IMG/VR virus record: IMGVR_UViG_2541047825_000011
Location: 1-39,394 of that record
Strand: one strand, 5' to 3'
Source of the DNA: a virus
Lineage: Duplodnaviria > Heunggongvirae > Uroviricota > Caudoviricetes
DNA length: 39,394 nucleotides
This document shows positions 6,074 through 38,140 of the stretch, one piece after another; the stretch's first letter is position 1; every line of letters starts with the position of its first letter. The notes under the pieces are model-generated. The model had not been told where the DNA came from and searched no databases. It saw only the letters and a list, made by a program, of their open reading frames with translations. Made by a program: the position numbers and the translations under genes.

Positions 6074-6176
6074 GTTAAATCTCCAGATAGTCGCAGCACC
6101 CGTTGCGCCGCATATCTGGTTATTCTATTACCTGAAAAACCACATATGGATAGAAAGACTGTGAATACGAACAGAT

Positions 6177-6574: not shown

Positions 6575-6839
6575 TTACATCGCACTCCTCTTGTGCCATA
6601 GTAATCGGGCACTGGCAAAATCCAGTGCCGGGATTGGCGTCCCGAGTTACTACAGAGGCACATATGCCGCATAAGCGGTTTTTTTTATGTGTAAAGCGCA
6701 CCTATTCTATGGTGGGCTGTGTGGGGGCACCGAAAGGTGCGCCGGGTCCTTTGTAGCCGGTTACGCCAACCCTGCACAGTTCACCACCAACCGATTGGCG
6801 TCGGTAGTGGTGATTAACCTAACTACAAAGGTGATCGCC

Positions 6840-7532
6840 ATGAATACCAAACCTTCCATCTTTTCCTTTGAGTCATCCTGCCAGATCCGTATGTTCATGA
6901 TTGACGGAGAACCTTGGTTTGTCACCAAAGATGTGTGCAATGCTTTGAATATTGATGTTACACAAGCGAGAAAACTTGATAAAAAAGGCTGGAACAAAAA
7001 GGGGCTGTATTCAATACAGACCCCTGGTGGAATACAAGAACTATCCATCGTTTCAGAATCAGGTCTCTACATCCTTATTCTGCGTTGCAAAGAGGCAATG
7101 ACTGAGGGAACGAGAGCATTCAGATTTCTTGAATGGGTTACAGGTGAGGTTCTTCCTCAGATCCGCCGCACCGGAAGTTACATTAAAAACTCGCTCCCGC
7201 AGGAAGAACGCATAAAGATGGTTGCCGACCAGGTAGCCAACGCCACGGCGTCAGCAGTAATGCAGGCGATGAAGATAGAGAACAAAACCTACAGCGCCCC
7301 ACTGAAGCCCGGCTACCGTAGCCTGATTCATTCGCCGTCTGGTGTTCTCGGCCTGACGGAGAACTCACTGCTGATGAATCTGCTGAACAAGTTACAGGAA
7401 GACGGGCACGATGTATCGGGCGCGGCAGCGGAGCTGACCACCATGTTCTGCTACATCGTCGGTGTGAGCAAATGCCTGCGTGATATCCAGACGCACGCGG
7501 AGTACATCAACGACAAAGCAGGGTTCTTCTGA
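6840..7532 (+). CDS. Phage antirepressor with BRO-N type N-terminal domain
   Basis: Track ORF 6687..7532 trimmed to ATG 6840 (GGTGA upstream); N-terminal FESSCQIRMFMIDGEPWFVTKDVCNALNI ... ESGLYILILRCKEAMTEGTRAFRFLEWVTGEVLPQIR matches the Bro-N/antirepressor pattern. Confidence 0.8.
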   Translation: MNTKPSIFSFESSCQIRMFMIDGEPWFVTKDVCNALNIDVTQARKLDKKGWNKKGLYSIQTPGGIQELSIVSESGLYILILRCKEAMTEGTRAFRFLEWVTGEVLPQIRRTGSYIKNSLPQEERIKMVADQVANATASAVMQAMKIENKTYSAPLKPGYRSLIHSPSGVLGLTENSLLMNLLNKLQEDGHDVSGAAAELTTMFCYIVGVSKCLRDIQTHAEYINDKAGFF

Positions 7533-8490: not shown

Positions 8491-8502
8491 GTGACATGTC
8501 AC
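8491..8502. repeat. 12-bp perfect palindrome GTGACATGTCAC (copy 1 of 3)
   Basis: Exact copies also at 25648..25659 and 27912..27923; all intergenic. Confidence 0.8.
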
Positions 8503-20532: not shown

Positions 20533-20970
20533 TTAACCAGTTACTTTTGAGCGGATCGGGTACGGCGTATTGGCATCAACATCAAGATTGATACCAGCAG
20601 TGAATTCGCCAGCCGTTAGTGGGCCAGTTGCGACGGAGTAGTTAACACGCAGATATCGCTGAACACCGGCAGGAACCTTTGCAGAAACAACTCGTTTACC
20701 TGCTGTCAGGGCGGTCTTTGCCAGTGCGCCACTATCATAAATAGTGGTCCATGAGCTGTTATTCTCACTCGTCTGCAACTGGATGTTTACAGTTGCATCA
20801 CCGCTTGCCGCGGCGGCTGTGTTAACCAGCGCCCAAAACTCAAGCGGGTAACCCACGCCGATATCACGACGTTTTCCGTCAATTGGACCGAGATCGATTA
20901 CGTCAGTAGAAGCCGCGGTATTCGTAACCGCCTGAGCTTCGGAGAACATCAACAGTTTGTCGGTGATCAT
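20533..20970 (-). CDS. Hypothetical capsid-associated protein (possible decoration protein)
   Basis: 145 aa, immediately downstream of the capsid gene; beta-rich composition. Confidence 0.5.
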   Translation of the reverse strand: MITDKLLMFSEAQAVTNTAASTDVIDLGPIDGKRRDIGVGYPLEFWALVNTAAAASGDATVNIQLQTSENNSSWTTIYDSGALAKTALTAGKRVVSAKVPAGVQRYLRVNYSVATGPLTAGEFTAGINLDVDANTPYPIRSKVTG

Positions 20971-21021
20971 CTTCTTTCTCCATTAGTGGGCCTGTTGCGG
21001 CCCACAGGTTAATAACAGGCG

Positions 21022-22014
21022 TTACACCACGCGGGCTTCTGTTTCCAGAAGCGCATCAGTTTCACGAATTGGTACACCACGGAATGAAGTCCACCACTCG
21101 CCTTCTGTCTCTTTTACGCTGATCGCCAGAGATGTTTTCTCCAGAGATTGCAGATCAAGAGCCTGGCCTACAGTGCGGTTCATGTAGAACACTGGGCGCC
21201 CCATGCCACGGTTTGGAATGCGATGCAGTGCTTTAACCATCAACTTCGCAATATTTGCGGCAGAGGAAGGTTCTGAAAGATTGCTGACATCGATGTTTGC
21301 AATGCGAACAACATAACGCCAGTCACGCAGAGCAAGTCCGTTGTCCCATTTGTAATGGGTGCGATAGCCTTCGTACTTGCCGCCATTAGCATCTTCCAGT
21401 GTCACCTGGCCTTTATCTTCCATCTGGATGCCAGCCTTCTGCCCTTTCGGGAAGATGCCATGCACGGTGTTTTCGCCCCACACCACTAACCAGATTGAGG
21501 TGTTATCTGTACCCGTGCCACCAGCATCAATGATGTTCTGAGCATTACCCGCAGACAGGCTGGAATAGCGGGAGGACAGTCCCATAAACTGCTGAGGGTT
21601 AACGCTGGAATCACCATAAAACAGCGTCTGCGCCATCTGCTGATTCATCGCTTCAATAAATGCGCGGTCTTCAGACAGGCGGAATTCAGCGGTATTGCCG
21701 TTCAGATCAGCCAGTGACTTATCGACTTCAGCATAGGTTTCCAGCATGCCAACGGAATCGGTTACCTGCACTGTGGTTGATTTGCTTGGCTGTACGCCAT
21801 AGTTCAGCAAACGCCAGGTAGCTGAAGGTAAACCAGAACGAATGGTGGTTCGGTGTCCGGTAGGAAGGTTCCCTTCGACAAAAGGCATATCCTGAAGGAT
21901 CGGGTTAGTTTGACCGAGAAGCTCGATAATCTTATCGACTTTCCCGTTTGGATCGACGCGCTTACCCCAGTCAGCCAGCGTTAGCGCAGTTAAGCCTTTA
22001 ACAGCCATTGTCAT
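21022..22014 (-). CDS. Major capsid protein
   Basis: 330 aa; directly follows the scaffold gene; stem-loop GTGGGCC-tgttgc-GGCCCAC downstream. Confidence 0.8.
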   Translation of the reverse strand: MTMAVKGLTALTLADWGKRVDPNGKVDKIIELLGQTNPILQDMPFVEGNLPTGHRTTIRSGLPSATWRLLNYGVQPSKSTTVQVTDSVGMLETYAEVDKSLADLNGNTAEFRLSEDRAFIEAMNQQMAQTLFYGDSSVNPQQFMGLSSRYSSLSAGNAQNIIDAGGTGTDNTSIWLVVWGENTVHGIFPKGQKAGIQMEDKGQVTLEDANGGKYEGYRTHYKWDNGLALRDWRYVVRIANIDVSNLSEPSSAANIAKLMVKALHRIPNRGMGRPVFYMNRTVGQALDLQSLEKTSLAISVKETEGEWWTSFRGVPIRETDALLETEARVV

Positions 22015-22022
22015 TTCCTCTC

Positions 22023-22724
22023 TTATTTGCCATAGAGCACTTCGGCCGCACTACGCTGGCCTTCATTACCACCGGTGACCATGCCATCTTCAGACATCGC
22101 CTTTCCGATTTTCACGAACGTTTTGACCAGATCAGGGTGATTACCCAGCCCGGTGGTGTTCAGATATTCTTTGAGTTCAGGTGTCCCGAACTGGTCAAGC
22201 GCACGCTGTGCGGCGCTAAGGTTAGAAATCAACTTGTCGCCACCGATTTCTTTGTCAGCTTTTACATCCGCAGCCCACTGCTCGGTTGTTTTCTGCCAGG
22301 CTTCTGCCTGGCGCTGCTGAACACCTGCCAGAATCTTCGGATAAGCATCAACCAGCTTTTGCGCTTGCTCGTTGGTCAGGTTAAGTTCTCGCGCCACCGG
22401 CTCGAATTCCTTCAACGCTTCTGTATCCAGCTCTACGCCTTCGGCAGCCTGAAACTCGTACTTCTCAGGCGCACCCTCTGGTTTATCGCCGTCCTTTTTT
22501 TCATCCTGCTTATCGTTTTCAGGCTTTTTGTCATCAGCAGGTTTATCGCCATCAGCAACAGGTTGTGGCTTATCACCTTCCTGTTGTGATGGATCACCAA
22601 CTGGAGCAGGGTTATCACCTGCAGGCGCTGACGGTTCTGACGCAGCCGGAGCTGCTCCACCATCGACTGGTTGCTCATTGCAAAGACGGCGATACAGCAA
22701 ACGCTCAAATAAATTCATGATCAC
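22023..22724 (-). CDS. Scaffolding protein
   Basis: 233 aa; strongly acidic/Lys-rich low-complexity N-half (DGDKPADDKKPENDKQDEKKDGDKPEG), helical C-half; upstream of the capsid gene. Confidence 0.7.
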   Translation of the reverse strand: MIMNLFERLLYRRLCNEQPVDGGAAPAASEPSAPAGDNPAPVGDPSQQEGDKPQPVADGDKPADDKKPENDKQDEKKDGDKPEGAPEKYEFQAAEGVELDTEALKEFEPVARELNLTNEQAQKLVDAYPKILAGVQQRQAEAWQKTTEQWAADVKADKEIGGDKLISNLSAAQRALDQFGTPELKEYLNTTGLGNHPDLVKTFVKIGKAMSEDGMVTGGNEGQRSAAEVLYGK

Positions 22725-23017
22725 TCCTGTTCACTGGCCTCTTTGGCCATCTTCAAATACTGTTCAGGGCAATGCGCCATAACGCGCTGAAACAGTTCCA
22801 GCGCCAGATTGCGTTGCCCCTCATTAAATGCCATTGCCATAGCATCCATCGGAGAGATAGCGGAAAACACACGGCCTTTCTCCAGCACCGACCAGACAAC
22901 GCGACGCCCCTGTTCACTGCTCATGACAAAGCGAATGTCATCAATTTCACGCTGTGCCATGTCACGTTGCTTACGGGCGTTTTCTTCTTTCAGTTGATCG
23001 TCTTCGTAATCTGTCAT
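22721..23017 (-). CDS. Hypothetical small head-module protein
   Basis: 98 aa; overlaps the portal stop and scaffold start. Confidence 0.5.
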   Translation of the reverse strand: MTDYEDDQLKEENARKQRDMAQREIDDIRFVMSSEQGRRVVWSVLEKGRVFSAISPMDAMAMAFNEGQRNLALELFQRVMAHCPEQYLKMAKEASEQE

Positions 23018-24693
23018 TGTGATTGCCCACCCTGACCACTAACTGCATTCGCCATAGCTGACAAAACACTCGGATCCGAAGTTTTAGCTTCGCTTAGCGT
23101 CTTGGCACCCTGTGCCGCCGCCATCCCCATCGCCATCATTTGTTGCTGCTGTTGTTGCTGTGCCCGTTGCTGGCGAGCCTGCTCAACCTGTTCCTGCGGA
23201 ACAATGACGGTTGGAGACACTCCGGACATATCAGCGAATGCATCGATCGCCTGATCAACGTTGAGTTTGTCGAGAGCTTCTGGTTTCGCTTGCGCAAGTT
23301 GACCAATGAAGTTGACCGTAGACGCCAGACTGGACAGGCCGATAGACTTCTGCGCCTGAGCCATGACGGAAATGTATTCGACCTTCAGGGGCATACCTTC
23401 CATCGCGTCAGGCGGTGGCGGCAGCATGTTTTTACGCACCATCATCGAGAAAGCGCGGTCAATGAGAGGATTAAGACATTCGTCGTTCAGACGCTCCAGA
23501 ACCGGCCCCAACATCAGAAGTTTTTCTTCTTTCATTTCGATCACCGCTTCAACAGGCATCGAGCGGGTATTGATGTTCTGCAACATCATGAACAGATCGA
23601 CAAAGTAGGCGCTGTTAATGATTTGACGAGTGTCCTGAATGTCTGCCACCAAATCTGCTGTACTGGGGTTAACCAGATAAGCAGGTCTGAAACCATCCTG
23701 ACCAGTAATCTGATCGATATACGTGATGTCGCCAGGAAGAAGGGAGGCACGCTGATTCTTGAGGGAAGTCGGAGCAACCATCGGCGGATTGGTGGCTTTA
23801 TCAATCAACTGCGACTTGCGCTTCTGGAGAAGCTGCAATGCCTTAACAGGTCCAAGCGCCAGCATACCCGGGCATGATGATCCATAAACATCTTCGCCGT
23901 TAACTTCCCAGCGCGGAGCCATAATTGGAAACTCATCGAATCCGGACTCACGCAACAACTTGTCGTTATCGCCACCAACCTCGTAATAAACCGATTTGAA
24001 TGGCTTGTTCTTGCTATCCAGCTTCGATGTATCGCGGTCAATGTTCGGGTAAACCGAATGCATCACTTCGATCCACTTCTCGTAGGTGCCGCTTTCCCAC
24101 ATGCTTTTTACGGATTCGCTGACGTTATTTAGCCCGAACTCCTGAACAAGCTGACGAACAGTCATAGAGAACTTGCGAAAACAGGTGTCAACACTGCCAC
24201 GAGGTGAGTTAGCCAGGTAGTAACTGCCTATCGGGAATGGCATTGTGCGAATGATGTCCTCGTCATCCTCCAGCACTGCCATTGCACCAGTGCTGTATGT
24301 GCCGAGGCTTCCGTATAACTGCGGCAGCGACTGATAGAGATTCGACTTATTGAACATATCGTTCATGCGGTTCTGCACCGCCTCAAGCCACAACTTAACA
24401 GGGCCATAATCCATCATTTCAGGATCTGGCGTAGCCAGGCGAAACCACGGACGCGCGGGGCTTGTGATGCCTGACATCATGCCGCTGGCGAGAGTGCGCG
24501 CCGCCATAGTCCCGGTCGAATCAATAATGCGTGTATTGCGTCGATCGTTACGGTTGACCTCAGAAGTCAGAAAGCGGGAACCACGCGGGTTGATGTAATC
24601 ACTCAACTCGCGCCAGTGCGGCTCGAACGACTGACGCTCGCTTTCAAGTTGTGCGAACTGTTTGTTCAATCGCTCTTTAGTTGTTTCCGCCAT
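23014..24693 (-). CDS. Portal protein
   Basis: 559 aa; Gln/Ala-rich C-terminal tail; position between terminase and scaffold. Confidence 0.8.
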   Translation of the reverse strand: MAETTKERLNKQFAQLESERQSFEPHWRELSDYINPRGSRFLTSEVNRNDRRNTRIIDSTGTMAARTLASGMMSGITSPARPWFRLATPDPEMMDYGPVKLWLEAVQNRMNDMFNKSNLYQSLPQLYGSLGTYSTGAMAVLEDDEDIIRTMPFPIGSYYLANSPRGSVDTCFRKFSMTVRQLVQEFGLNNVSESVKSMWESGTYEKWIEVMHSVYPNIDRDTSKLDSKNKPFKSVYYEVGGDNDKLLRESGFDEFPIMAPRWEVNGEDVYGSSCPGMLALGPVKALQLLQKRKSQLIDKATNPPMVAPTSLKNQRASLLPGDITYIDQITGQDGFRPAYLVNPSTADLVADIQDTRQIINSAYFVDLFMMLQNINTRSMPVEAVIEMKEEKLLMLGPVLERLNDECLNPLIDRAFSMMVRKNMLPPPPDAMEGMPLKVEYISVMAQAQKSIGLSSLASTVNFIGQLAQAKPEALDKLNVDQAIDAFADMSGVSPTVIVPQEQVEQARQQRAQQQQQQQMMAMGMAAAQGAKTLSEAKTSDPSVLSAMANAVSGQGGQSQ

Positions 24694-24707
24694 TTCAATG
24701 ACTCCGG

Positions 24708-24914
24708 TTACTGACCAAGTAGCGTTTTACCGCTGGTATTAGCGGTTGATGTGTCGCCCTGAGAACCGGTAAGCAGCGTAGAACTACGACCAGCAGCAGC
24801 GCGACGGCGACGAGTTTCTTCGTCGCGGGCATCAACAACGGCGGCATCCTGCTCCTGTGGTGCTGCCTGAACTTCTGGTGTTGCAGGCACTGATGGTGAG
24901 CTACCCATGCACAT
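24708..24914 (-). CDS. Small acidic protein upstream of portal
   Basis: 68 aa with GGAG upstream; preferred over the overlapping 79-aa ORF 24695..24934. Confidence 0.35.
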   Translation of the reverse strand: MCMGSSPSVPATPEVQAAPQEQDAAVVDARDEETRRRRAAAGRSSTLLTGSQGDTSTANTSGKTLLGQ

Positions 24915-24982
24915 ATCAATGACTCCGTACGCAATTAAATTATTACCAATTTAACCACATATGATTTATTTATCGTAGGCAG

Positions 24983-25020
24983 TTGACATTTAACGCACAA
25001 ATTATTACCTTTCAGGTAAC
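24983..25020 (+). promoter_or_regulatory. Candidate promoter (-35 TTGACA) with overlapping operator-like palindrome ATTACC-TTTCA-GGTAAC
   Basis: TTGACA at 24983..24988; palindrome at 25004..25020 where a -10 would lie; oriented toward the tRNA. Confidence 0.4.
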
Positions 25021-25340
25021 CAAAGAGTTCATTCCGGTTACTAACCTGACTGGCTTGTCGTTAAATTGAACAGGTGGAGTGAGCTTTTATTTTGAGCAGT
25101 ACGGCGTATGGCACATGCGCCGATAGCGGTCTGGATACGTTTAAGGGGCACCCTCCCTTGCTCGGGCAACGAACCAGGTAGCCGGAATGTGCAAGTCGAG
25201 CGGTTTTATTCCGCGCACGGGGATTCACCATCCTGGCGATTCGGTGTGACGCCTCGGAAGAGACGAGGGTACAACGATGAGAGCATTTATGAAGCCGCGA
25301 CAAAGTGTGGCGTCTTAACAGGCTAAGTGCTCTCAGCGTT

Positions 25341-25417
25341 GTGGCATTAGCTCAGTTGGACAGAGCAACCGCCTTCTAAGCGGTTGGTCGCAGGTTCGAA
25401 TCCTGCATGCCACGCCA
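25341..25417 (+). tRNA. tRNA-Arg (anticodon UCU)
   Basis: 77 nt cloverleaf by hand: acceptor GTGGCAT/ATGCCAC, D-arm GCTC..GAGC, anticodon stem ACCGC/GCGGT with loop CTTCTAA, T-arm GCAGG-TTCGAAT-CCTGC, encoded CCA; differs from host argU in acceptor and anticodon stems. Confidence 0.9.
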
Positions 25418-25460
25418 GAATCACGCCTAAGGACCGTGATGCCAGAAGTTCCAGGGGCTT

Positions 25461-25502
25461 GGCGGTGATGGTTTCCCTTGAAGGACTATCACCGCCCTTT
25501 TT
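25461..25502 (+). terminator. Hairpin with T-run downstream of tRNA
   Basis: GGCGGTGAT ... ATCACCGCC 9-bp stem with long loop, then CTTTTT. Confidence 0.45.
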
Positions 25503-25580
25503 ACAGCAGGACGCCATTGCGATGACTTCATGCTGTAAACCCGTACAGCCACGGAAGGCAAAACTCATTGCTTCCAGTTC

Positions 25581-25604
25581 GCCCGGTTCGCCGGGCATTT
25601 TTTT
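25581..25604 (+). terminator. Rho-independent terminator
   Basis: GCCCGG-ttcg-CCGGGC followed by ATTTTTTT. Confidence 0.75.
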
Positions 25605-25647
25605 AAGGTGTGAATCATGAAATACGAATTCGATGGATTTTGATGTC

Positions 25648-25659
25648 GTGACATGTCAC
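25648..25659. repeat. 12-bp perfect palindrome GTGACATGTCAC (copy 2 of 3)
   Basis: About 75 bp beyond the terL stop, at the right edge of the tRNA island. Confidence 0.8.
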
Positions 25660-25663
25660 AAAC

Positions 25664-25690
25664 AGCCAGCCGATGAGCTGGCTTTGTTTT
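25664..25690 (+). terminator. Hairpin plus T-run
   Basis: AGCCAGC-cgatga-GCTGGCT followed by TTGTTTT. Confidence 0.5.
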
Positions 25691-25733
25691 ATCATCATCA
25701 GAGGATATCAACGATATTATCCCCTCAAGCGGA

Positions 25734-27209
25734 TTAAGCATAGGGATCGTAATCTGTGATGGCCTTGCCTTGCTGGTTCTGCTGCCCGGGAATTCGCAGA
25801 CGCTTCGACACAGGGAACGCAAACGTCAGCAGTAGCGCATCGCCTTTACCAGGCGAACGCCCAAGCCGCTCCTTGATATCTTCCTTCGGTTCGATAACGA
25901 TTTTACCGTCCACTCGAACTTTGTACTCTGCCGCCGACAGATCGTCCGCTGTTTCCTGGTCATCCAGCATCCCGCCCAGCCTCAGCCATGTCTTGCATGA
26001 GTTGAACATCTCCCCACGCTTGTTGAGCATCTGCTGGTCAGTAGACGCGCCACCGAACGGAACAAGTTGCCATGTGCGCCCCCAACCGTCACCGATTGAC
26101 TTCAGACCGGTACCGTAACCAAAGTCGATGAACACTGCGTCAGCCTGATACAGGTCTTCAAAGTCAGCAATACGCTTCGCCATAATCAGATCGTCGGTAG
26201 TCTTGTTGCCAGTCCACAGCACCTTACTGTGTAGCCCCTGCCGCAGGTATATCACCGCGTCATCAACGCCTGAATATGCCGGGTCAACACCGATTATCAC
26301 CGGAGCATGCGCCACCTGCGCAGCGGTTACCACCCGTTTCATTGCCTCATCAGTAAGACCGGTAGGGATAAACTGCAATTCAGATGCATCAGGGAATATG
26401 CCGCGCACACGGATTTTAACGAAGTCGCTGTCTTCCCCGTAGTCATCAACCCATTTCTGCAACTGCTGTTTGTTAGTGCCTTCCACCGTCCGGCTGTCAA
26501 TCTGCGCAGTTTTCCAGCGGTGTTTATATTTGCGGAAACATTCACGGAATCGCCCGGTATTACGCGTCGGGTTTCCGAACGCCACCCAGATAATCTCAGT
26601 GTCTTCGTCCGTTAGCGCACCTTCGGCAACTTCCCACACCAGATCCGCAATGTTCGACGCTTCATCGAATACCACGATGATGCGTTTGCGCTCGTTGTGT
26701 AGTCCGGCGAATGCCTCAGTGTTGTGCTCAGACCAGGGGATTGCGTCAGCTCGCCACCGCTTGTCGTGCCCAGGATCATTGCTGTACATCGCGGTAGCGG
26801 TACAGGTAAACCAGTCTTTCGTGATAGCAAGGTTCGACCACTTGATAATTTCCGGCCAGGTCTTCGTTCGTAGCTGGTTGTCGGTGTTGGCGGTCACCAC
26901 GACCTTACAATCCTCGCAAGTGGACATGCCCCAGTTGATCAGCATTGAGATGAATGCGGATTTACCAATACCGTGACCAGAAGCGCGTGCCAGCATAAGC
27001 GGCTGATAGCGCGTCTCTGGATTCTGCAGGTAATCACGTATCTCTCGGAACGCATCAGCCTGCCACTGACGTGGGCCGGTGGCATGTGCCAGTTCAGTCC
27101 CCTCTTCCCCCCACGGGAACGCATAGAGGGCATAGCCAAGCGGATCGTGAGTGAACCCTGCAATATCCTCGATCAACTGCTCTTCAGGAGATAACGCTGT
27201 ATCTGTCAC
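25734..27209 (-). CDS. Terminase large subunit
   Basis: 491 aa; P-loop-like SGHGIGKS, Walker B-like IIVVFDEASN, C-terminal nuclease-like region; overlaps terS stop. Confidence 0.9.
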   Translation of the reverse strand: MTDTALSPEEQLIEDIAGFTHDPLGYALYAFPWGEEGTELAHATGPRQWQADAFREIRDYLQNPETRYQPLMLARASGHGIGKSAFISMLINWGMSTCEDCKVVVTANTDNQLRTKTWPEIIKWSNLAITKDWFTCTATAMYSNDPGHDKRWRADAIPWSEHNTEAFAGLHNERKRIIVVFDEASNIADLVWEVAEGALTDEDTEIIWVAFGNPTRNTGRFRECFRKYKHRWKTAQIDSRTVEGTNKQQLQKWVDDYGEDSDFVKIRVRGIFPDASELQFIPTGLTDEAMKRVVTAAQVAHAPVIIGVDPAYSGVDDAVIYLRQGLHSKVLWTGNKTTDDLIMAKRIADFEDLYQADAVFIDFGYGTGLKSIGDGWGRTWQLVPFGGASTDQQMLNKRGEMFNSCKTWLRLGGMLDDQETADDLSAAEYKVRVDGKIVIEPKEDIKERLGRSPGKGDALLLTFAFPVSKRLRIPGQQNQQGKAITDYDPYA

Positions 27210-27802
27210 TGATTACCATCCTGACGTTCTTTGAGTCGCTTCCTGGCTGCCGCTATGCGATCAGCAATTGTCACATTCACATTAACATCCAGGCGTTCTT
27301 TGAACGCGTTGACGTCGACGTGCTTACCAATCAGTTCGAGGTTCTTCACCTTGTCAGGCCATTTAATTTTTTTGAGGATTGTCTCTATCGAATCCTCGTT
27401 CATGTTCATGATGGTCGATGACAGATCAAAGCCACTAAGCGTAGTGCGCCAGATTTTCGGCCACTCGCGGATTGGCTTAAGGCTCCCATCGTCGTTGAGG
27501 ATGTCGATCACGTCCATCTGGTCGATCTCCACTAGGCGCATGAGAACGTAATCAGCACTGACGCGCATTCGTTTGTTGCGCTCCTCCATCAACTCGGCAA
27601 TCCGTTTTTGAATGCGTTCATCGCGCATCATGACACTGGCTTTAACTGCCGCTGTATTTGGGGAGAATCCTGCGTTAATCGCTGCCTGAGTCTGGTTTTC
27701 AGGCGTTTTGATGTATGACTGGCAATAAGCCTCCTGCATTGCTGTTAGTGGCTTAAATTGCGTTGATTTGCGTTTATAGGTTTTAGGTTCAGCAGGCATC
27801 AT
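27206..27802 (-). CDS. Terminase small subunit
   Basis: Track ORF 27206..27898 trimmed to the ATG pair at 27802/27799 because a hairpin with T-run and direct repeats occupy 27803..27898. Confidence 0.6.
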   Translation of the reverse strand: MMPAEPKTYKRKSTQFKPLTAMQEAYCQSYIKTPENQTQAAINAGFSPNTAAVKASVMMRDERIQKRIAELMEERNKRMRVSADYVLMRLVEIDQMDVIDILNDDGSLKPIREWPKIWRTTLSGFDLSSTIMNMNEDSIETILKKIKWPDKVKNLELIGKHVDVNAFKERLDVNVNVTIADRIAAARKRLKERQDGNQ

Positions 27803-27809
27803 AACCACC

Positions 27810-27838
27810 GTGGTAATAGTTACCGTTGTGGTAATAGT
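27810..27838. repeat. Two 11-bp direct repeats GTGGTAATAGT just upstream of terS
   Basis: Copies at 27810..27820 and 27828..27838; each carries a TTACC half-site on the coding strand. Confidence 0.55.
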
Positions 27839-27844
27839 ACCATG

Positions 27845-27871
27845 CAAAATAAAGCCGCCATAGTTGGCGGC
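27845..27871 (-). terminator. Terminator-like hairpin in the terS leader
   Basis: GCCGCCA-tagt-TGGCGGC; T-rich run follows on the minus strand. Confidence 0.45.
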
Positions 27872-27911
27872 AGTATTCAAAACCATCAAATTCATCATGC
27901 ATAATCTACTC

Positions 27912-27923
27912 GTGACATGTCAC
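27912..27923. repeat. 12-bp perfect palindrome GTGACATGTCAC (copy 3 of 3)
   Basis: Overlaps the stop codon of gene 27920..28261, upstream of terS. Confidence 0.8.
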
Positions 27924-28261
27924 ACTATTAATTTCGTTTCATGCCAGCCTTTAGTCACCCAGCATTGTGAGTCACCATTACACGGACATGAATTAACTGG
28001 AACTCTCTCGCCGCACTTACCGCAACGTTTTCTAATGATCGATTTTATACGCCCGCGCACGCGTGCATCATCCTGGCGGATCAGTAACGCTATATACTCA
28101 CAAAATTCGTAAGGCGCACGCCCGGGGCGACGCGCAGCACAGTTACGCTCAAGCATTTCAATTTCCTGAGCATCAAGCACAATTTCCAGCTTACGCACAC
28201 CAGATGCAGCTTGTCTGGCTCTCTGAGCGGCTTTGCGCTCTGCTGCTGATTTAGCCATCAA
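27920..28261 (-). CDS. Cys-rich small basic protein (candidate zinc-ribbon regulator)
   Basis: 113 aa; basic helical N-terminus; C-terminal CGKCGERVPVNSCPCNGDSQC cluster; last gene before the packaging genes. Confidence 0.55.
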   Translation of the reverse strand: MMAKSAAERKAAQRARQAASGVRKLEIVLDAQEIEMLERNCAARRPGRAPYEFCEYIALLIRQDDARVRGRIKSIIRKRCGKCGERVPVNSCPCNGDSQCWVTKGWHETKLIV

Positions 28262-28532
28262 TATTTACCTTTATCGCGAACACCTTTACCGGTTTATCAC
28301 CGAAGTGGGGGTGTGTGATTGTCTTGATTTCATATCCGTCATACGGGACGTCAATTCTGCGACTGGAGTCGTCGCGCTTCGGATATCCCCTTGTGATAAT
28401 CAGGCGGTCATACTTACGGTTAACGAGGCGCTTATTCCAGTAGTCATTACACAAGCGATACTCTTCCGTTTTCTCTCCACGAATCATGGCATCGAAGTAT
28501 TCACCTTTGACGGCAAGTTGCAGGTTAGCCAC
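28251..28532 (-). CDS. Hypothetical nin-region protein
   Basis: 93 aa; coupled to flanking ORFs. Confidence 0.55.
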   Translation of the reverse strand: MANLQLAVKGEYFDAMIRGEKTEEYRLCNDYWNKRLVNRKYDRLIITRGYPKRDDSSRRIDVPYDGYEIKTITHPHFGDKPVKVFAIKVNIDG

Positions 28533-29151
28533 GGTTAACCTCCTGCGGCGGTTCCGGTAGCGGCATCCAGTGGGTTACTTTCGATGCCGGTTCTTCCACA
28601 TCGTCAGTAACTGCCCACCATTTGTTTTTCGACCAATCGTAATACCCTTCGAAGGTATCGCACTCAGTCCAGCCGTAAGACTTCCCCCAACACCAAACAT
28701 ACTGTTTATCGTTCGGCATTCGCTCACTACAGCTTATCCAACCATCCGGAGTTACCGGAGAGTTGCCCGACAGCTCGTTCAACTTATAAGTCTGGCTTAC
28801 AGGTTCGGCACCATTAAGCATGGAGGCGCGGCAGGCGTTCCAGCCTTCATCAAAGCCGACTATGCCATTATTTAAAGACGGACGAGCATCTGGCACCATC
28901 GGCACTGGCTTGGCTATATATAGCGGCTGAACATACCAGCCCTTTGATAACCAACTGTCAGCAATGTTTTTACTCCTCGTTATTGCCGGAATACCTAAGC
29001 CATTTTCTGAATGCAGCCATGCCACCGGCTCCTCTTCTAGCGATGCCAGAGCAATTTCATAAGCACGGCGCTCAATATTGTCTCGCACGTCCAGGCTGCC
29101 TATGCGTTCTTTGATTTCTTTAATCATTTCTTTGTCGGTTAAAGTTGTCAT
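28525..29151 (-). CDS. Phage protein with DUF551-like C-terminal domain
   Basis: 208 aa; Trp-rich C-terminus VWCWGKSYGWTECDTFEGYYDWSKNKWW...HWMPLPEPP. Confidence 0.6.
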   Translation of the reverse strand: MTTLTDKEMIKEIKERIGSLDVRDNIERRAYEIALASLEEEPVAWLHSENGLGIPAITRSKNIADSWLSKGWYVQPLYIAKPVPMVPDARPSLNNGIVGFDEGWNACRASMLNGAEPVSQTYKLNELSGNSPVTPDGWISCSERMPNDKQYVWCWGKSYGWTECDTFEGYYDWSKNKWWAVTDDVEEPASKVTHWMPLPEPPQEVNRG

Positions 29152-29154
29152 GTG

Positions 29155-29472
29155 TTAGTCCTCATCCACTTCAACGCCATCTTTCAGCGTGATGCCGTGC
29201 CAATCATCAGCCCAACTGGTTAGCCCTGGCGCATCAATGCTAGGCATATAAACGCTTGCAGTGTGGTAGCCCTTATCGTTATCAATGCTGGCAACGTGCT
29301 CGCCGTTGTATGCGCTCAGCGTGTCCAGGACGCTATAAAACTTTCCTCCGGCTGCCCTGAAATCCTTTACAGCCTTCACAAGGCGATTCCACGCTTTTTC
29401 CTGTTCTGGCGTCAGGTCGATTAATTCCTGCAAAGTTGCCATATCACCCTCCTTTGATGCCAATGCCAGCAA
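29155..29472 (-). CDS. Hypothetical nin-region protein
   Basis: 105 aa; possible later start at Met11. Confidence 0.5.
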   Translation of the reverse strand: MLALASKEGDMATLQELIDLTPEQEKAWNRLVKAVKDFRAAGGKFYSVLDTLSAYNGEHVASIDNDKGYHTASVYMPSIDAPGLTSWADDWHGITLKDGVEVDED

Positions 29473-30205
29473 GCCAGTTTCTTATGCCGATATATTCAGC
29501 GTTCCTGAAACCGCCATTTACATATATAAATGGCAAGCGAAGATTGTGACCATTGGCTGCCAGGTAGTCTTTACAACCCTGTTCGGTGAAACAGCAGGTA
29601 ACGAATTCATCAATATCTTTCACAGCAACGCGCCGCCATTTTTCTGGTGGTTCCCGAAAGTTTTCATGAAGTAGTTCGAGACGACGACTTTGGCGTTTAT
29701 TGGCTTCATTGCCATCTTCATCAACCCAGACAATCCTGTCATAGTCATAATCAGCATCAACAACGATTTCGCGCTTTTGATACACACAAAACATAGGGTC
29801 TGACGTTATTCGATTATCCTGTGTTCGAATATTTTCACCGATGATGCCAAACGAATCTGGTGCAGATTTTGTCTTCAACTCTTCGATACGTTTGCTTTGA
29901 GCTTCCAGTTCATCAAGAAGCGCAAGCATGGTAGCCGGACTGGCTGCGGCGATGAATTCAGCATTTGCCTGCTGTTCCATTTGGAAATCTTCATCGAAAC
30001 CGCTTTCAGGATGCGCTCCTTCAATTCTGCAAATGGGAATATATCCAGCAGCCTCGCGATGAATTAGCGCATCATCACCATCAAATCGGCCCTCTCCATA
30101 TTCGAGCGACCATACACCACACGTTGCTTTCTCTGCCTTTTCACGCAGTGCCTGATAGTCAATCTTGCTCACTGGTTTCCTCCTTTGCGAAGCTGTTCCG
30201 CACAA
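29444..30205 (-). CDS. Ead/Ea22-like protein
   Basis: 253 aa; N-terminal KIDYQALREKAEKATCGVWSLEYG and coiled-coil segment typical of lambdoid Ea22-type proteins; start uncertain. Confidence 0.55.
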   Translation of the reverse strand: MCGTASQRRKPVSKIDYQALREKAEKATCGVWSLEYGEGRFDGDDALIHREAAGYIPICRIEGAHPESGFDEDFQMEQQANAEFIAAASPATMLALLDELEAQSKRIEELKTKSAPDSFGIIGENIRTQDNRITSDPMFCVYQKREIVVDADYDYDRIVWVDEDGNEANKRQSRRLELLHENFREPPEKWRRVAVKDIDEFVTCCFTEQGCKDYLAANGHNLRLPFIYVNGGFRNAEYIGIRNWLAGIGIKGG

Positions 30206-30828
30206 TCCAGCAGGGCGTCCGTCGCTTCTTTCACCGTAACGATGTCGCCATCGTCCAGCCCGACAACCGTCGCGTTCTTAACGAACACCGAGCAAAGGTC
30301 ATTAAACGCCTGCGCCCGCACTTCAGCCAGGCATTTGCGAAACTCGGAAACGTACTGTTCGACGCTCATTCCCCAGCTAAGTGGACATTCATTGAATGTT
30401 TCGCCTTCGTGCTCTTCATCAGGTAGCTCTTTGGTAAAGAACTCACGTTCAATGGCGTGGAGTGTGTCAGCAAAACGACGTAAGTTACTCAAACCTGTCG
30501 TAATGGAGAATTCAGGAGCATCACATCCGACGCCCATCTGCTGATAAACGGCGGTTTTGAAGGCCTTCAGCCCCGCATTCTCCGCCGCCAACGCCGAAAA
30601 CTTCTCGTGTGCCAACTTAACAGCCGCATCAGCCTGCTTAATTGACTCAATCGCTTTCTGCTGGTCTTCGGCCAGCGCATTAGCACGCACCAGTTGCACT
30701 TCCAGTTGCGTTGCCAAATCGCTGATCAGCTTTGCCACACTGCGCATATCAACGGCACCACATTCTGCTTTCAGTTCCGAAGCCATCTCATGCCCGGCGG
30801 CAACTAACCCTTTGATATTACTTTCCAT
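30169..30828 (-). CDS. Hypothetical coiled-coil protein
   Basis: 219 aa, helical composition. Confidence 0.55.
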   Translation of the reverse strand: MESNIKGLVAAGHEMASELKAECGAVDMRSVAKLISDLATQLEVQLVRANALAEDQQKAIESIKQADAAVKLAHEKFSALAAENAGLKAFKTAVYQQMGVGCDAPEFSITTGLSNLRRFADTLHAIEREFFTKELPDEEHEGETFNECPLSWGMSVEQYVSEFRKCLAEVRAQAFNDLCSVFVKNATVVGLDDGDIVTVKEATDALLDCAEQLRKGGNQ

Positions 30829-30889
30829 CTTTACCCTCGCTTATCCACATAACTTATTGATTACATTGATAACTAAAAAGATCGTCGAT

Positions 30890-31234
30890 TCAGAACTCTT
30901 CGATGTTCCAGCCACCACCTGTTTTCTTTGGTTTAACCGTTACCCCGATGATTCGGAACGGATACTGATCTGCGGCGACTTTGGTTTTCACCCTGGCGTC
31001 GTCGGTCCAGAAACCTTTCACTTCGTGCAGTTCCATCTCTCCGGTGGCGAGCATCACAGCGAAATCTGGCGTATAGAACGTGTTGTCAGCTAACCGCAGC
31101 TTGATACCCTCGAATCGATACCAGGCGATTTCCCCTGCACGTTTACGCAGCTCAAGGTGCTGGCAATACGCAGATTCAGTTTTGTTCATCTGGCCTGTTT
31201 TGAGTCGACCAAGAGCCTGTATCTGTTTTCTCAT
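30890..31234 (-). CDS. Small PD-(D/E)xK-type nuclease-like protein (DUF1064-like)
   Basis: 114 aa; motif YTPDFAV...GEMELHEVKG fits PD...ExK; its SD lies inside an operator-like palindrome. Confidence 0.6.
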   Translation of the reverse strand: MRKQIQALGRLKTGQMNKTESAYCQHLELRKRAGEIAWYRFEGIKLRLADNTFYTPDFAVMLATGEMELHEVKGFWTDDARVKTKVAADQYPFRIIGVTVKPKKTGGGWNIEEF

Positions 31235-31235
31235 G

Positions 31236-31254
31236 ATTTACCTCTGAGGTAATT
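31236..31254. promoter_or_regulatory. Operator-like palindrome ATTTACC-TCTGA-GGTAATT
   Basis: Overlaps the Shine-Dalgarno and start of gene 30890..31234. Confidence 0.55.
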
Positions 31255-31287
31255 AAAAACCACATAAGACATGAAATCAATAGAGTT

Positions 31288-31315
31288 TATAATATTTTGT
31301 TACCTAACAGGTAAT
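31288..31315. promoter_or_regulatory. TATAAT hexamer plus operator-like palindrome GTTACC-TAACA-GGTAAT
   Basis: TATAAT at 31288..31293; palindrome at 31299..31315; intergenic between the P-like gene and the nin-like genes. Confidence 0.5.
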
Positions 31316-31326
31316 TATCGAGGCGT

Positions 31327-33650: not shown

Positions 33651-34235
33651 ATGAAAAGTATCCAGGACGTCCGCAGGCAAAATCTCAACGACTTGATCGA
33701 CCGTGAATTCAATGGTGTTCAGACGCGGATGGCTGAAAAACTTGGAACTCAGGCAAATCTGGTAAACCGCTGGGCTCTTGGCAAGAAGGTTATCGGCGAC
33801 CAGGTTGCACGAAAAATTGAAGCTGCCGCCAATAAACCCCGTAACTGGCTTGATATCGATCGCTCGCTTTCTCAGGAAGGTTTTCAGCCTGTCGGCCCAA
33901 GCGACATTGGCCAGCTGGCGGCTCACAACCTGGAACGCTGGATGAGCGAAAGCCGCGACCTTTCAACACAGGGAAAACTTCACCGCGCATCCGGCGTAGC
34001 CCAGGTGACAATCAGCCGCCTGTTAAACAATGAGGTCAGCGTTTCCATTTCCACCCTGGAGAATGTTGCATCCGCATTCGGGCGTCACGGCTATGAATTA
34101 CTGATTCACCCGCACGACCCTGCGACCATCAACTATGATCGCTCGCGCTACGCATTGTTACCCGAAACCGAGAAAGCAAAGATCGAAAGTTACATTGAAT
34201 TTGTCATCAACCAGAACGAAAAAAACAAACAATAA
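33651..34235 (+). CDS. Prophage repressor (cI-like) with two HTH motifs and no recognisable autocleavage module
   Basis: 194 aa; two XRE-type HTH segments (QTRMAEKLGTQANLVNRWALG and KLHRASGVAQVTISRLLNN); no Ala-Gly or Cys-Gly dipeptide and no S24-like C-terminal region. Confidence 0.75.
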   Translation: MKSIQDVRRQNLNDLIDREFNGVQTRMAEKLGTQANLVNRWALGKKVIGDQVARKIEAAANKPRNWLDIDRSLSQEGFQPVGPSDIGQLAAHNLERWMSESRDLSTQGKLHRASGVAQVTISRLLNNEVSVSISTLENVASAFGRHGYELLIHPHDPATINYDRSRYALLPETEKAKIESYIEFVINQNEKNKQ

Positions 34236-34257
34236 AACCATATTTTTCAGTAAGTAA

Positions 34258-34282
34258 GCCGCCTTATGGCGGCTTTTTTATT
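34258..34282 (+). terminator. Rho-independent terminator after the repressor gene
   Basis: GCCGCC-ttat-GGCGGC followed by TTTTTTATT. Confidence 0.8.
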
Positions 34283-34291
34283 GCCTATTCG

Positions 34292-34308
34292 ATTACCTAA
34301 CGGGTAAT
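34292..34308. promoter_or_regulatory. Operator-like palindrome ATTACC-TAACG-GGTAAT
   Basis: Perfect arms; upstream of the early-left promoter. Confidence 0.6.
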
Positions 34309-34326
34309 TTTTTTAACTCATATCTA

Positions 34327-37306: not shown

Positions 37307-37949
37307 GAAATACACACTAATCTATGCAGATCCACCCTGGGTATACCGGGACAAAGCCGCAGATGGTAATCGCGGTGCCGGTTTTAAATATCCGGTTATG
37401 AGTGTGCTGGATATCTGCCGCCTTCCTGTGTGGGATTTGGCCGATGAAAACTGTCTGTTGGCCATGTGGTGGGTGCCAACACAACCACTCGAAGCACTAA
37501 AAGTTGTTGAGGCCTGGGGATTCCGTCTGATGACCATGAAGGGATTCACGTGGATAAAATGTGGTAGTCGACAACCAGATAAACTGGTTATGGGTATGGG
37601 TCACATGACTCGCGCCAATAGTGAAGATTGCCTGTTTGCAGTAAAGGGAAAACTACCTACGCGCATTAATGCAGGGATCGTTCAGTCATTTACCGCACCG
37701 CGGCTTGAGCATTCAAGAAAACCAGATATCGTTCGTGAAAAACTTTTGCAATTGTTAGGCGATGTTTCTCGCATTGAACTGTTCGCCCGCCAGTCGTCTC
37801 ATGGTTTCGATGTTTGGGGTAATCAGTGCGAAGACCCGGCAGTGCAACTACACCCTGGATACGCGTTGGATATTGCCAGATTAACAAATGCATTCAGCAA
37901 TGCTCCGCTGTCACCAACAGACAACCAGGGGCGGGAGCGTGCAGCATGA
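37299..37949 (+). CDS. MT-A70 family N6-adenine DNA methyltransferase (orphan)
   Basis: Track ORF trimmed to ATG 37299; catalytic DPPW motif in YADPPWVY; no adjacent restriction endonuclease gene. Confidence 0.8.
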   Translation: MTKKYTLIYADPPWVYRDKAADGNRGAGFKYPVMSVLDICRLPVWDLADENCLLAMWWVPTQPLEALKVVEAWGFRLMTMKGFTWIKCGSRQPDKLVMGMGHMTRANSEDCLFAVKGKLPTRINAGIVQSFTAPRLEHSRKPDIVREKLLQLLGDVSRIELFARQSSHGFDVWGNQCEDPAVQLHPGYALDIARLTNAFSNAPLSPTDNQGRERAA

Positions 37950-38140
37950 ACAGGGCATCACCATCAGATTTAAGGAAATGCCTTGAAACTGCAAACATGC
38001 TTGCACACAGCGGGATCAGGTTTGTTCCAATTCCCGCTGTCACTGATGCTGAATTTGCAACACTGTCAGCAATATTCACAGATAAAATTGAATCACTGGC
38101 AGCAGAAGCCGAGATGGAAGAAAATCAGCAGAACTATTAA
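37946..38140 (+). CDS. Small hypothetical protein
   Basis: Track ORF 37826..38140 trimmed to ATG 37946 (GGGAG upstream, overlaps methyltransferase stop); 64 aa. Confidence 0.5.
   Translation: MNRASPSDLRKCLETANMLAHSGIRFVPIPAVTDAEFATLSAIFTDKIESLAAEAEMEENQQNY

Follow-up and report, generated by a model that had tools for sequence, protein, structure and literature searches.

In Bacillus, the eps-associated RNA (EAR), an Rfam family, is a structured RNA that lies within its operon and brings about processive antitermination without a dedicated protein. In lambdoid phages that lack N, the putL and putR RNAs of HK022 and the putL-like RNA of HK639 occupy the very beginning of the PL transcript or a site just behind it; terminators follow, and no phage protein is dedicated to these RNAs, HK022 putL itself lying just downstream of PL (PMC9378689). 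Casjens and colleagues noted that N-less lambdoid phages of the mEp460 type may use RNA-mediated antitermination (PMC12315714). For lambdoid phages unlike HK022, the question remains how early terminators are passed in the absence of N. Here we describe a structured RNA family that is placed much like putL, at the position where such an element is expected, so that the question becomes testable with simple reporter constructs.

One copy of this RNA lies in the terL/portal gap of a phiV10-like prophage, within the 39,394-nt stretch of DNA analyzed here (the window). An earlier note on this DNA had placed a tRNA-bearing island in that gap, antisense to the late operon, and this was borne out: terL lies on one side and the small gp3-like gene that precedes the portal gene on the other. 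The island is best explained as an early transcription unit of small size, oriented opposite to the late operon, and its anatomy is very probably that of an operator-covered promoter, a leader, the structured RNA, a tRNA gene and tandem terminators. Transcription would start at the operator-covered promoter (24983–25019) and pass through a leader of ~78 nt and the ~245-nt structured RNA to the tRNA and the terminators (Table 1). The same note had called the gap protein-free. This was true in that no ORF there is conserved across the relatives compared, and inaccurate in that ORFs of 42–85 aa are listed in it.

Table 1. Features of the island and its neighboring genes, in window coordinates.
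Feature	Position	Strand	Detail or basis
Portal gene	23014–24693	-	Pfam Head-tail_con
gp3-like ORF, 68 aa	24708–24914	-	
Promoter candidate	24983–25011	+	-35 TTGACA 24983–24988, 17-bp spacer, weak -10 TACCTT 25006–25011; read from sequence
Operator	25001–25019		ATTATTACC-TTTCA-GGTAA (inverted repeat TTACC/GGTAA), overlaps -10; repeat count in window
Leader, ~78 nt	between promoter and structured RNA	+	
Whole structured RNA, ~245 nt	25097–25342	+	five covarying helices including an H-type pseudoknot, and a long terminal hairpin
Structured RNA core	25097–25269	+	covariance model R1, covariation
H1	25102–25109/25115–25122	+	loop GGCAC
H2 base	25131–25134/25174–25177	+	variable arm, CCUUG loop motif
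Invariant block, 19 nt	25177–25195	+	GGUAGCCGGAAUGUGCAAG
H3 variable hairpin	25198–25216	+	
Pseudoknot	S1 25220–25223/25231–25234; S2 25226–25229/25243–25246	+	
H5	25252–25256/25264–25268	+	loop GAAGAGA
P6 terminal hairpin	25271–25342	+	arms 25271–25289 and 25324–25342, 34-nt loop; 19-nt inverted repeat, 89% complementary
tRNA-Arg(UCU), 77 nt	25341–25417	+	CCA encoded at 25415–25417; ARAGORN, Rfam RF00005
Terminator T1	25461–25505	+	14-bp stem then CUUUUU; hairpin/T-run site 25461–25496; terminator scan, folding
Terminator T2	25581–25604	+	GCCCGG-UUCG-CCGGGC then AUUUUUUU; site 25581–25596; scan, folding
12-bp palindrome	25648–25659		GTGACATGTCAC; one of three exact copies in window
Terminator T3	25664–25692	+	AGCCAGC...GCUGGCU then UUGUUUUAU; site 25664–25683; scan, phiV10 comparison
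terL	25734–27209	-	named in phiV10 and phiv142-3
terS	27206–27898	-	Pfam Terminase_2

The TTGACA promoter described earlier stood in part. Its -35 is perfect and the arrangement TTGAC[AC]-N17-TACCTT is kept in the epsilon15-like relatives L006, L020, L073 and L088; its -10 is poor, and a consensus promoter scan did not call it. It is kept as a candidate on the strength of the -35 and of conservation, not of a good -10. The operator-like palindrome over this promoter proved to be a genuine repeated operator, as 14 sites of the form ATTATTACC-N5-GGTAA (at most two mismatches) occur in the window where 0.14 would be expected. The epsilon15 record annotates a repressor-binding site in the equivalent gap, which separates gp3 from a remnant of the RNA. 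The second palindrome noted previously, downstream of the tRNA, was also found to be repeated, as it recurs exactly at 8491 and 27912 and with one mismatch at 22954 (4 matches with at most one mismatch, 0.11 expected).

ARAGORN found a single tRNA gene in the window, tRNA-Arg (tct) with its anticodon at position 35, and the Rfam tRNA model scored it at 73.3 bits against a gathering score of 29. Both programs thus agree with the clean tRNA-Arg(UCU) with encoded CCA that had been read from the sequence, and the UCU anticodon stands in a 7-nt loop. Its reported resemblance to host argU, short of identity, was confirmed by comparison with the E. coli K-12 gene, with which it shares 64 of 77 positions (83%). 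Of the 13 differences, ten are coupled two by two in five base pairs of the acceptor and anticodon stems and three fall in the D-loop and variable region; the D- and T-arms are near-identical. The tRNA is therefore real and phage-specific, distinct from host argU. A count of AGA and AGG codons, which had been proposed as a check, showed the phage to be AGR-rich (AGA 7.7 and AGG 4.6 per 1000 codons, AGR making up 20% of Arg codons). There are 31 AGR codons in the 918-aa tailspike-like ORF at 3317–6073, which has a Peptidase_S74 domain, and close to none in the head genes; the tRNA may help to translate AGR-rich phage genes such as this ORF. This part of the locus is ordinary, as tRNA-Arg(UCU) is already annotated in many phiV10-like and SPN9TCW-like relatives. 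What is new is the structured RNA that precedes it.

The stretch before the tRNA (25061–25340) had been left unexplained, a structured leader or a decayed second RNA gene being suggested for it. It proved to be neither a decayed gene nor a merely passive leader. No other part of the locus is as well conserved, and positions 25097–25342 are one copy of a large, covarying, pseudoknotted non-coding RNA family. The covariance model R1 finds it at 148.9 bits (E 4e-48) as the only copy in the window. An Rfam 15 search of 24900–25760 at E up to 10 passed only the tRNA and gave no family match for the structured RNA, all other matches having E of at least 2 except the antisense image of the tRNA itself. 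Covariation was examined on two sets, of 25 and 101 distinct sequences. Across the 101, 96.6% of cells were paired compared with 26–55% in slid controls, 12 pairs changed on both sides, and none of 500 shuffles reached any of five measures. Some of the pairs are invariant or common G-U pairs, and because of these the + strand is taken as the functional one. About 60 nucleotides are invariant, and the block GGUAGCCGGAAUGUGCAAG is unchanged even in the most divergent aligned copies. RNAalifold offered an alternative to H1 in which GCACAU pairs with AUGUGC, all of these bases being invariant; a G-C to A-U compensatory change favors H1, and the other pairing may be a tertiary or alternative contact. 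Loop contacts GCAC/GUGC and CUUG/CAAG are likewise proposed.

These results bear on the alternative that only the tRNA matters, the stretch before it being what is left of a tRNA or other RNA gene, or else coding for a small protein. A 72-aa ORF (25108–25326, + strand) and an 80-aa ORF (25061–25303, - strand) overlap the region, and several GenBank records annotate hypothetical proteins there. However, no frame was open in all 25 representatives, six of which had stops in all six frames, and length differences were not multiples of three; protein-coding ORFs in the gap were rejected on these grounds. Nor did the tRNA model find a second match at E up to 10. A decayed tRNA was likewise rejected, given this result and the strong structural constraint on the region: its covarying helices and invariant blocks are kept at ~70–82% identity across unrelated phage types, and the RNA also occurs without any tRNA. 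Decay or coding is thus hardly credible as an explanation.

The terminal hairpin P6 joins the RNA to the tRNA, with closing pairs ACAAC/GUUGU of which the last two use tRNA nucleotides 1 and 2. When 34 distinct arm pairs of relatives were compared, the stem formed in ~30; compensatory variants are among them, and inserts of 4–146 nt occupy its loop, including tRNA-like T-arms in L086 and L088. A boxA-like UGCUCUUU within P6 was considered and rejected, as it is not conserved and covaries as part of the stem. Inspection by eye for GGA motifs of the CsrA type showed too few sites. P6 has no following U-run of the kind found in a terminator-type riboswitch layout, and the first terminator after it starts ~120 nt downstream in the window and ~140 nt downstream in mEp460.

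More than 260 copies of the RNA were found among the matches listed in viral contigs, and 832 of 5426 complete E. coli genomes matched a 1.4-kb query; Shiga-toxin phages and P1-type plasmids are among the carriers. A lambdoid setting, downstream of cI and directly behind the early-left promoter PL, is shared by ~60% of copies. Among the matches listed, ~130 of the 215 copies with an upstream ORF stand 110–570 nt downstream of a same-strand CI-type repressor gene, and these repressors represent a dozen immunity types. The order in mEp460 is cI, a terminator, OL-like operators with PL, the RNA, a hairpin (-22 kcal/mol, followed by UCUUUUU) and the early-left genes, with no N gene in this early-left region. 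Ayreon, Stx2a_1447 and mEp390 have the same arrangement, no N-like antiterminator being encoded at the locus in any of the four, and several prophage types also carry the RNA just after an early promoter in an N-less lambdoid setting. In five promoter types the -10 ends 6–7 nt before H1, and the RNA would therefore start the transcript. The window copy starts ~78 nt after its operator-controlled promoter and belongs to a podovirus. In P1 the RNA lies between trnI and ban, inside an operon under the C1 operator Op72. Wherever regulation was examined (PL, the P1 ban operon and the window operator), the shared context is a repressor-controlled early transcript. An exception to the early context is SopranoGao, in which the RNA follows the lysis genes. 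Tandem copies were seen in one viral contig, L156.

Comparison of the syntenic relatives upheld the expectation that island content differs among them. In Tyrion, PAT1 and ST11-OXA245phi3.2 the RNA stands at the terL/portal locus without any tRNA, most copies elsewhere have no adjoining tRNA, and other modules occupy the same RNA/tRNA junctions in some relatives. The tRNA is an optional part of the locus, and the RNA is kept without it. The tRNA gene is an exchangeable cassette, and the point at which it is joined is the conserved 3' end of the RNA (GUUGUGG). The locus shows that a phage tRNA gene can be passed on in this form, linked to a structured RNA.

Our working interpretation, which we consider quite possible while short of probable, is that the structured RNA is a cis-acting element that modifies transcription elongation, put-like in function without being a put homolog. 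It would act on the transcribing RNA polymerase or on its own transcript, as a processive antiterminator of the put kind or as a leader, so that early transcription could continue through the terminators behind it; an RNase P cut at the 5' end of the tRNA would then separate the two RNAs. With an antiterminating RNA, the need for as many as three successive terminators to stop the unit before it runs antisense into terL would be understandable. The scan placed three hairpin/T-run terminators on the + strand downstream of the tRNA, the maximum that had been proposed, and found 4 sites in the region compared with 1.3 expected. The segment 25418–25510, which contains T1, folds at -31.5 kcal/mol, and T1 is present in ST11-OXA245phi3.2 with changes inside the hairpin. 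phiV10 has T1 and T2 downstream of the tRNA and ahead of the co-oriented gene p03, and T3 is the counterpart of the terminator annotated after p03, a gene deleted in the window.

Several observations argue against antitermination. Only antisense terL lies beyond the window terminators, so that passing them has no obvious benefit there. The number of terminators downstream of the RNA was not above that on the opposite strand in two crude home-made scans, although folding supports individual strong terminators. Finally, the early region of mEp460 holds one copy of the RNA and its PR operon none, as opposed to the putL and putR pair of HK022. The lack of homology to put, the non-early context in SopranoGao and the poor -10 of the window promoter count on the same side. 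In addition, the tight tRNA junctions, where RNA and tRNA share a strand (0 nt before tRNA-Arg in the window, 14 nt behind tRNA-Ile2 in P1-like elements), fit an excised stable RNA equally well.

Such an excised RNA would act in trans: released from early transcripts through RNase P cleavage where it meets the tRNA, through the processing of tRNA 3' ends in P1-like phages or through RNase III/E cleavage at P6, it would bind a conserved host factor for takeover or counter-defence, with the tRNA genes serving only as processing sites or as fellow stable-RNA cargo. The recurrence of tight same-strand junctions in two unrelated lineages is consistent with this, as are the 16–20 bp P6 stem, which resembles an RNase III substrate and holds variable cargo in its loop, and the flexible operon position seen in SopranoGao. 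The invariance of GGUAGCCGGAAUGUGCAAG in the most divergent copies would fit a conserved host partner. No protein family is conserved downstream of the RNA, where the ORF families are function-unassigned or ParB-like, and because of this a host partner is implied; the lack of a conserved phage protein partner favors the trans-acting RNA, which would also be expressed first after derepression. However, in lambdoid copies P6 is not directly followed by a terminator or other defined 3' end, the placement at the very start of the PL operon that ~60% of copies show would be superfluous for a free-standing RNA, and no target or seed region can be proposed. We regard a trans-acting role as rather unlikely.

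The position of the RNA at boundaries between tRNA, mRNA and leader segments, together with the long, near-perfect duplex of P6, also raises the possibility of a processing or stability module. In that case a structured 5' cap-like domain and an RNase III stem would guard or mature the tRNA or mRNA, or the RNA would be a self-cleaving ribozyme, with no action on RNA polymerase or a host target. Units made up of a hairpin and (C)ACAAC ... GUUGUGG recur in the leaders of some relatives, in agreement with such a module, and the authors of the epsilon15 work had already predicted RNase III cleavage in the region, but on the other strand. A simple protective structure would, however, need neither ~60 invariant nucleotides nor a conserved pseudoknot; no known self-cleaving ribozyme family in Rfam matches, and most copies have no tRNA to mature. 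A processing module is an improbable account of the RNA.

If the elongation-modifying role is correct, the RNA would be the missing early antiterminator of N-less lambdoid phages, namely the mEp460/cdtI/Ayreon-like coliphages, Stx2c and some Stx2a phages, and the same antiterminator RNA would also be used by P1-like plasmid-prophages and epsilon15-like podophages. It may, although this is less likely than not, found a new class of protein-independent RNAs, structurally unrelated to put or EAR, that render E. coli RNA polymerase resistant to termination; an equally new alternative would be a ribozyme or a decoy RNA directed at a conserved host factor. Whatever its role, few non-coding sequences in temperate enterobacterial phages are as conserved as this one, which has so far gone unannotated or been mis-annotated as hypothetical proteins. 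Searches of the literature by phage name, context and invariant strings, with King et al. 2011 on new antiterminator RNAs outside their scope, found no description of it.

Set against known systems, the closest functional analog, by position and proposed role, is the put type of RNA. A put RNA is ~70 nt long with two stem-loops and promotes terminator read-through by way of the zinc-binding domain of the RNA polymerase beta' subunit. The RNA described here measures 170–245 nt; it has at least five helices and a pseudoknot, and its terminal hairpin is variable. Unlike HK022 put, it is present in mEp460 as a single copy with no PR counterpart, and it is also found in P1-like and epsilon15-like phages. 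Homology to put was rejected, as R1 found no match in HK022 22000–31000 or in the HK639 putL-like RNA (34187–34312). The heptamer GGAAGAG is shared with the HK639 RNA. In the 9-kb HK022 stretch the heptamer occurs only twice, both times in the left-operon part with no other similarity, and the immunity region lacks it; the sharing is probably due to chance.

EAR comes from a different phylum and has a different structure, and no Rfam family matches the window RNA. The lambda nut sites and rrn leaders, with boxA, boxB and boxC, are likewise leader RNA elements of early or stable-RNA operons, and rrn operons, like the window locus, bring together tRNA genes, long stems of the processing type and a leader with structure. 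In contrast to lambda nut, no N-like protein is encoded downstream, and the boxA-like UGCUCU in the P6 3' arm varies with its pairing partner. The T4 'species 1' and 'species 2' RNAs (rnaC and rnaD) are structured, co-transcribed with the T4 tRNAs and released by tRNA-processing enzymes. They offer a possible parallel to the window RNA, but come from a lytic phage, and we know of no report of them in early operon leaders. Among phage tRNA-Arg(UCU) genes, those of phiV10-like and SPN9TCW-like phages, argN and argO of Stx phages and the T4 tRNA-Arg are alike in being rare-codon tRNAs of AGR-rich phages. The gene described here differs from them in that it directly continues a conserved structured RNA at its 3' end, the terminal stem of this RNA sharing the first nucleotides of the tRNA.

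Directly before the tRNA-Arg(UCU) lies a conserved, pseudoknotted structured RNA, in a stretch that the earlier note had thought might hold a structured leader or a decayed RNA gene. The region is non-coding, and neither a decayed gene nor a small protein accounts for it. In alignments, long invariant blocks (UGGCACAUG, AGCGGUC, GGUAGCCGGAAUGUGCAAG, GGCG..GGUGUGAC and GGAAGAG) alternate with arms that vary in length and sequence yet still pair. Five core helices were defined: H1, the base of the variable arm H2 (whose loop retains a CCUUG motif), S1, S2 and H5, with S1 (GCGA/UCGU) interleaved with S2 (CACC/GGUG) in an H-type pseudoknot. Across 25 diverse sequences, in a MAFFT-based count without bias towards the structure, 94.1% of cells paired, against 29–48% with slid partners, and nine pairs changed on both sides. 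An alignment of 101 distinct sequences, fitted to the model and hence biased towards the structure, gave 96.6% against 26–55%, and 12 pairs changed on both sides, including all four S1 pairs and a G-C/A-U exchange in H1; none of 500 shuffles reached any of five measures. H1 has an invariant U-G and S1 a common G-U, which would be A-C mismatches on the opposite strand, so the plus-strand RNA is the functional one.

Of 34 distinct arm pairs, about 30 form the terminal hairpin P6; compensatory variants are numerous, and loops measure 4–146 nt. Some P6 loops or trailers (L086, L088 and the downstream RNA part of L013) contain tRNA-like T-arms (GGTTCGATTCC), at which ARAGORN called no tRNA; they may represent cargo resembling tRNAs, or decayed tRNAs lying within the hairpin. 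In the leaders of some relatives (SopranoGao, L151, 1660-1990; mEp390, L148, 1660-1990; L011, upstream of the RNA) we observed repeated units that consist of a short hairpin, then (C)ACAAC, then a long P6-like hairpin and finally GUUGUGG, with a recurrent spacer UGAAUGCGCAGGCUGAUGCGC ... GCCGGAGAUCAGCACCGGCCACCACAAC between units, which suggests a modular RNA system larger than the modeled core.

Searched alone, 25050-25340 matched 86 phage records and 591 plasmids, almost none of which has an annotation there. The matches comprised phiV10-like phages (98% identity), the lambdoid phages mEp460, cdtI, Ayreon, 2H10, Stx2c and some Stx2a phages (about 80–82%), P1, P7, D6, SJ46 and RCS47 (about 78–81%), and Klebsiella, Salmonella and Enterobacter phages plus two phages labeled Stenotrophomonas (about 70–76%). 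In the window, R1, a covariance model of the core, hit a single copy (148.9 bits); in epsilon15 it picked up a truncated remnant (29.9 bits). Two pattern scans of viral contigs each gave at least 120 loci; another scan, of a collection with one genome per species, found 13, which fell in Kosakonia, Phytobacter, Citrobacter, Klebsiella, Superficieibacter, Pseudescherichia and Escherichia. One viral contig (L156) has two same-strand core copies about 650 nt apart (3999-4157 and 4806-4962; 103 and 136 bits). No Rfam family matched the region at E up to 10, and we found no annotation, family or paper describing the RNA within an incomplete coverage of the literature. We regard it as structurally a new class and probably of a known functional kind.

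Features of the tRNA island and related sites in the window
Feature	Position	Strand	Remarks
isrK	6609-6685		Rfam, 74 bits
C4 antisense RNA	6705-6791		Rfam, 79.5 bits
Bro-N antirepressor-like ORF	6687-7532
Portal	23014-24693	-	late gene
gp3-like ORF	24708-24914	-	68 aa; late gene
Promoter candidate	24983 (TTGACA)		17-bp spacer, poor -10 TACCTT; conserved in epsilon15-like relatives shown
Operator palindrome	25001-25019		ATTATTACC-N5-GGTAA; covers -10 of promoter candidate
Operator copies	6174, 6554, 7601, 25001, 27798-27838, 31238-31318, 33581, 34293, 34351
Second weak promoter-like site	25067-25096		TTGAAC-N16-TATTTT
Structured RNA core (R1)	25097-25269	+
P6	25271-25289/25324-25342	+	closed by ACAAC/GUUGU(GG)
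tRNA-Arg(UCU)	25341-25417	+	77 nt, CCA encoded; ARAGORN and Rfam concordant, 73.3 bits
T1 loop	25472-25485		UUUCCCUUGAAGGA
12-bp palindrome	8491-8502, 22954-22965, 25648-25659, 27912-27923		GTGACATGTCAC; three exact, one with single mismatch
terL	25734-27209	-	late gene
terS	27206-27898	-	late gene

ARAGORN and Rfam both found a single tRNA, bearing out the clean tRNA-Arg(UCU) described earlier, which is already annotated in many relatives. It resembles K-12 argU without being identical (64/77 positions), and ten of the 13 differences form five paired changes in the acceptor and anticodon stems; it is therefore a separate phage gene, and these changes rule out a host copy or an assembly artefact. 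AGA and AGG (AGR) codons occurred at 7.7 and 4.6 per 1000 codons in crudely called window ORFs, making up 20% of Arg codons, against roughly 2 and 1 per 1000 in E. coli. The bias is concentrated, with 31 AGR codons in a 918-aa ORF (3317-6073) bearing a Peptidase_S74 domain and almost none in the portal, the terminase and the ORFs at 20533-23017. In phiV10 (L002, 2249-2500) hypothetical protein PhiV10p04 is annotated antisense across the unannotated tRNA, while phiv142-3 (L003, 2249-2317) has the tRNA on the wrong strand and gives it 69 nt; both seem to be errors of annotation. Taken alone, the tRNA island is in our view ordinary.

The 1.4-kb region surrounding the island shares 97–99% identity with Uetakevirus phages of the phiV10 type (phiv142-3, phiV10, TL-2011b, ZX5) and with prophages of many E. 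coli chromosomes; at least 80% of this query was present in 498 of 5426 complete genomes. The proposed TTGACA promoter fared unevenly: the epsilon15-like relatives shown preserve the arrangement in full, but the -10 is poor and a consensus scan did not call the promoter. The operator-like palindrome over it is a truly repeated site, with 14 window copies at up to two mismatches against 0.14 expected, clustered near the C4/isrK immunity region, the replication genes and the start of terS, and including two overlapping pairs within the terS 5′ end. This genome-wide dispersal is like that of P1 C1 operators, and in the epsilon15 record a repressor site is marked in the matching intergenic region. 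C4 and isrK lie side by side, adjoining the Bro-N ORF and the operator copies at 6174, 6554 and 7601, and together they make up, in an epsilon15-like podophage, an immI immunity module of the P1 style. The second promoter-like site ends 7 nt before the structured RNA and would start transcripts at H1, as in several lambdoid relatives. In L006, a Klebsiella relative, the site is not preserved.

Downstream of the tRNA, the terminators and 12-bp palindrome noted earlier were both recovered, as three hairpin/T-run sites (T1, T2, T3) and as the exact copy at 25648; 0.11 copies of the palindrome were expected in the window. The copies include one immediately upstream of terS and another close to the portal gene's end; the palindrome may be the binding site of a late regulator. 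The T1 loop resembles the conserved H2-loop motif UCCCUUGAAG of several relatives (L011, L040), which may be coincidence. In phiV10, T1 and T2 are followed by an additional gene, p03, which a deletion has removed from the window.

We tabulated tRNA neighbors for 262 copies of the structured RNA and upstream ORFs for 215. About 130 of the 215, the lambdoid class, sit 110–570 nt downstream of a same-strand CI-type repressor gene with Peptidase_S24 and/or HTH domains (Pfam), covering a dozen immunity types. In mEp460, cI and its terminator are followed by a TTGCAT/TATCTT promoter flanked by two OL-like operators, the RNA, a 13-bp hairpin with UCUUUUU, and early-left genes among which N, the lambda-type antiterminator gene, is absent. 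Ayreon (terminator and promoter author-annotated), Stx2a_1447 and mEp390 share this layout. In five promoter types the -10 ends 6–7 nt before H1, so that the structured RNA is transcribed first. In the P1-like class 14 nt separate tRNA-Ile2 from the start of the RNA; P1 has the RNA about 100 nt ahead of ban, within the ban operon under C1 operator Op72. The P1 core is unannotated between trnI and ban (AF234173, 70700-70879; L001, 2497-2676; 150 bits), and P6, missing there, is kept in the P1-like elements L044, L112 and L153. In the epsilon15-like class the RNA lies between terL and gp3/portal behind the operator-covered promoter, and most members carry tRNA-Arg(UCU) directly after P6. Tyrion, PAT1 and ST11-OXA245phi3.2 have the RNA without the tRNA; in the last, the interval from GUUGUGG to AAUCACGC, where the tRNA would stand, is taken up exactly by a 150-nt module that is typical of the leaders of lambdoid phages. 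Epsilon15 retains only a 5′ RNA remnant and a p03-like gene. In a second viral set, eight copies stand at other distances from tRNA-Arg(UCU), and in the Klebsiella phage SopranoGao the RNA follows the lysis genes. No conserved protein family lies downstream of it. The locus is well supported as a modular RNA unit in which the structured RNA is constant and the tRNA an exchangeable cassette, as is the placement of the RNA in a repressor-controlled early transcript in three main phage types.

The tight tRNA junctions, together with the invariant 19-nt block, would fit the main rival explanation, an excised, stable RNA acting in trans; thirdly, it could be a module for processing or stability, or a ribozyme. 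The RNA most commonly stands at the 5′ end of the early-left (PL) transcript of lambdoid phages without N, with terminators ahead of the early-left genes. HK022 putL has the same placement (PMC9378689), and RNA-mediated antitermination is what Casjens and colleagues explicitly suspect in N-less phages of this kind (PMC12315714). From these points we infer, and favor, a function in cis on the transcribing polymerase, as a leader or processive antiterminator. The three tandem terminators in the window might then exist because the polymerase is termination-resistant, and any benefit in this phage would hinge on that. Homology to put was rejected for HK022 and HK639, and, in contrast to putL/putR, the structured RNA is single-copy in the mEp460 early region. 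HK639 (L147) has an 'M3-like RNA' annotated downstream of cII (37910-37969), besides an RNA annotated as putL-like; the latter has the same placement as the structured RNA.
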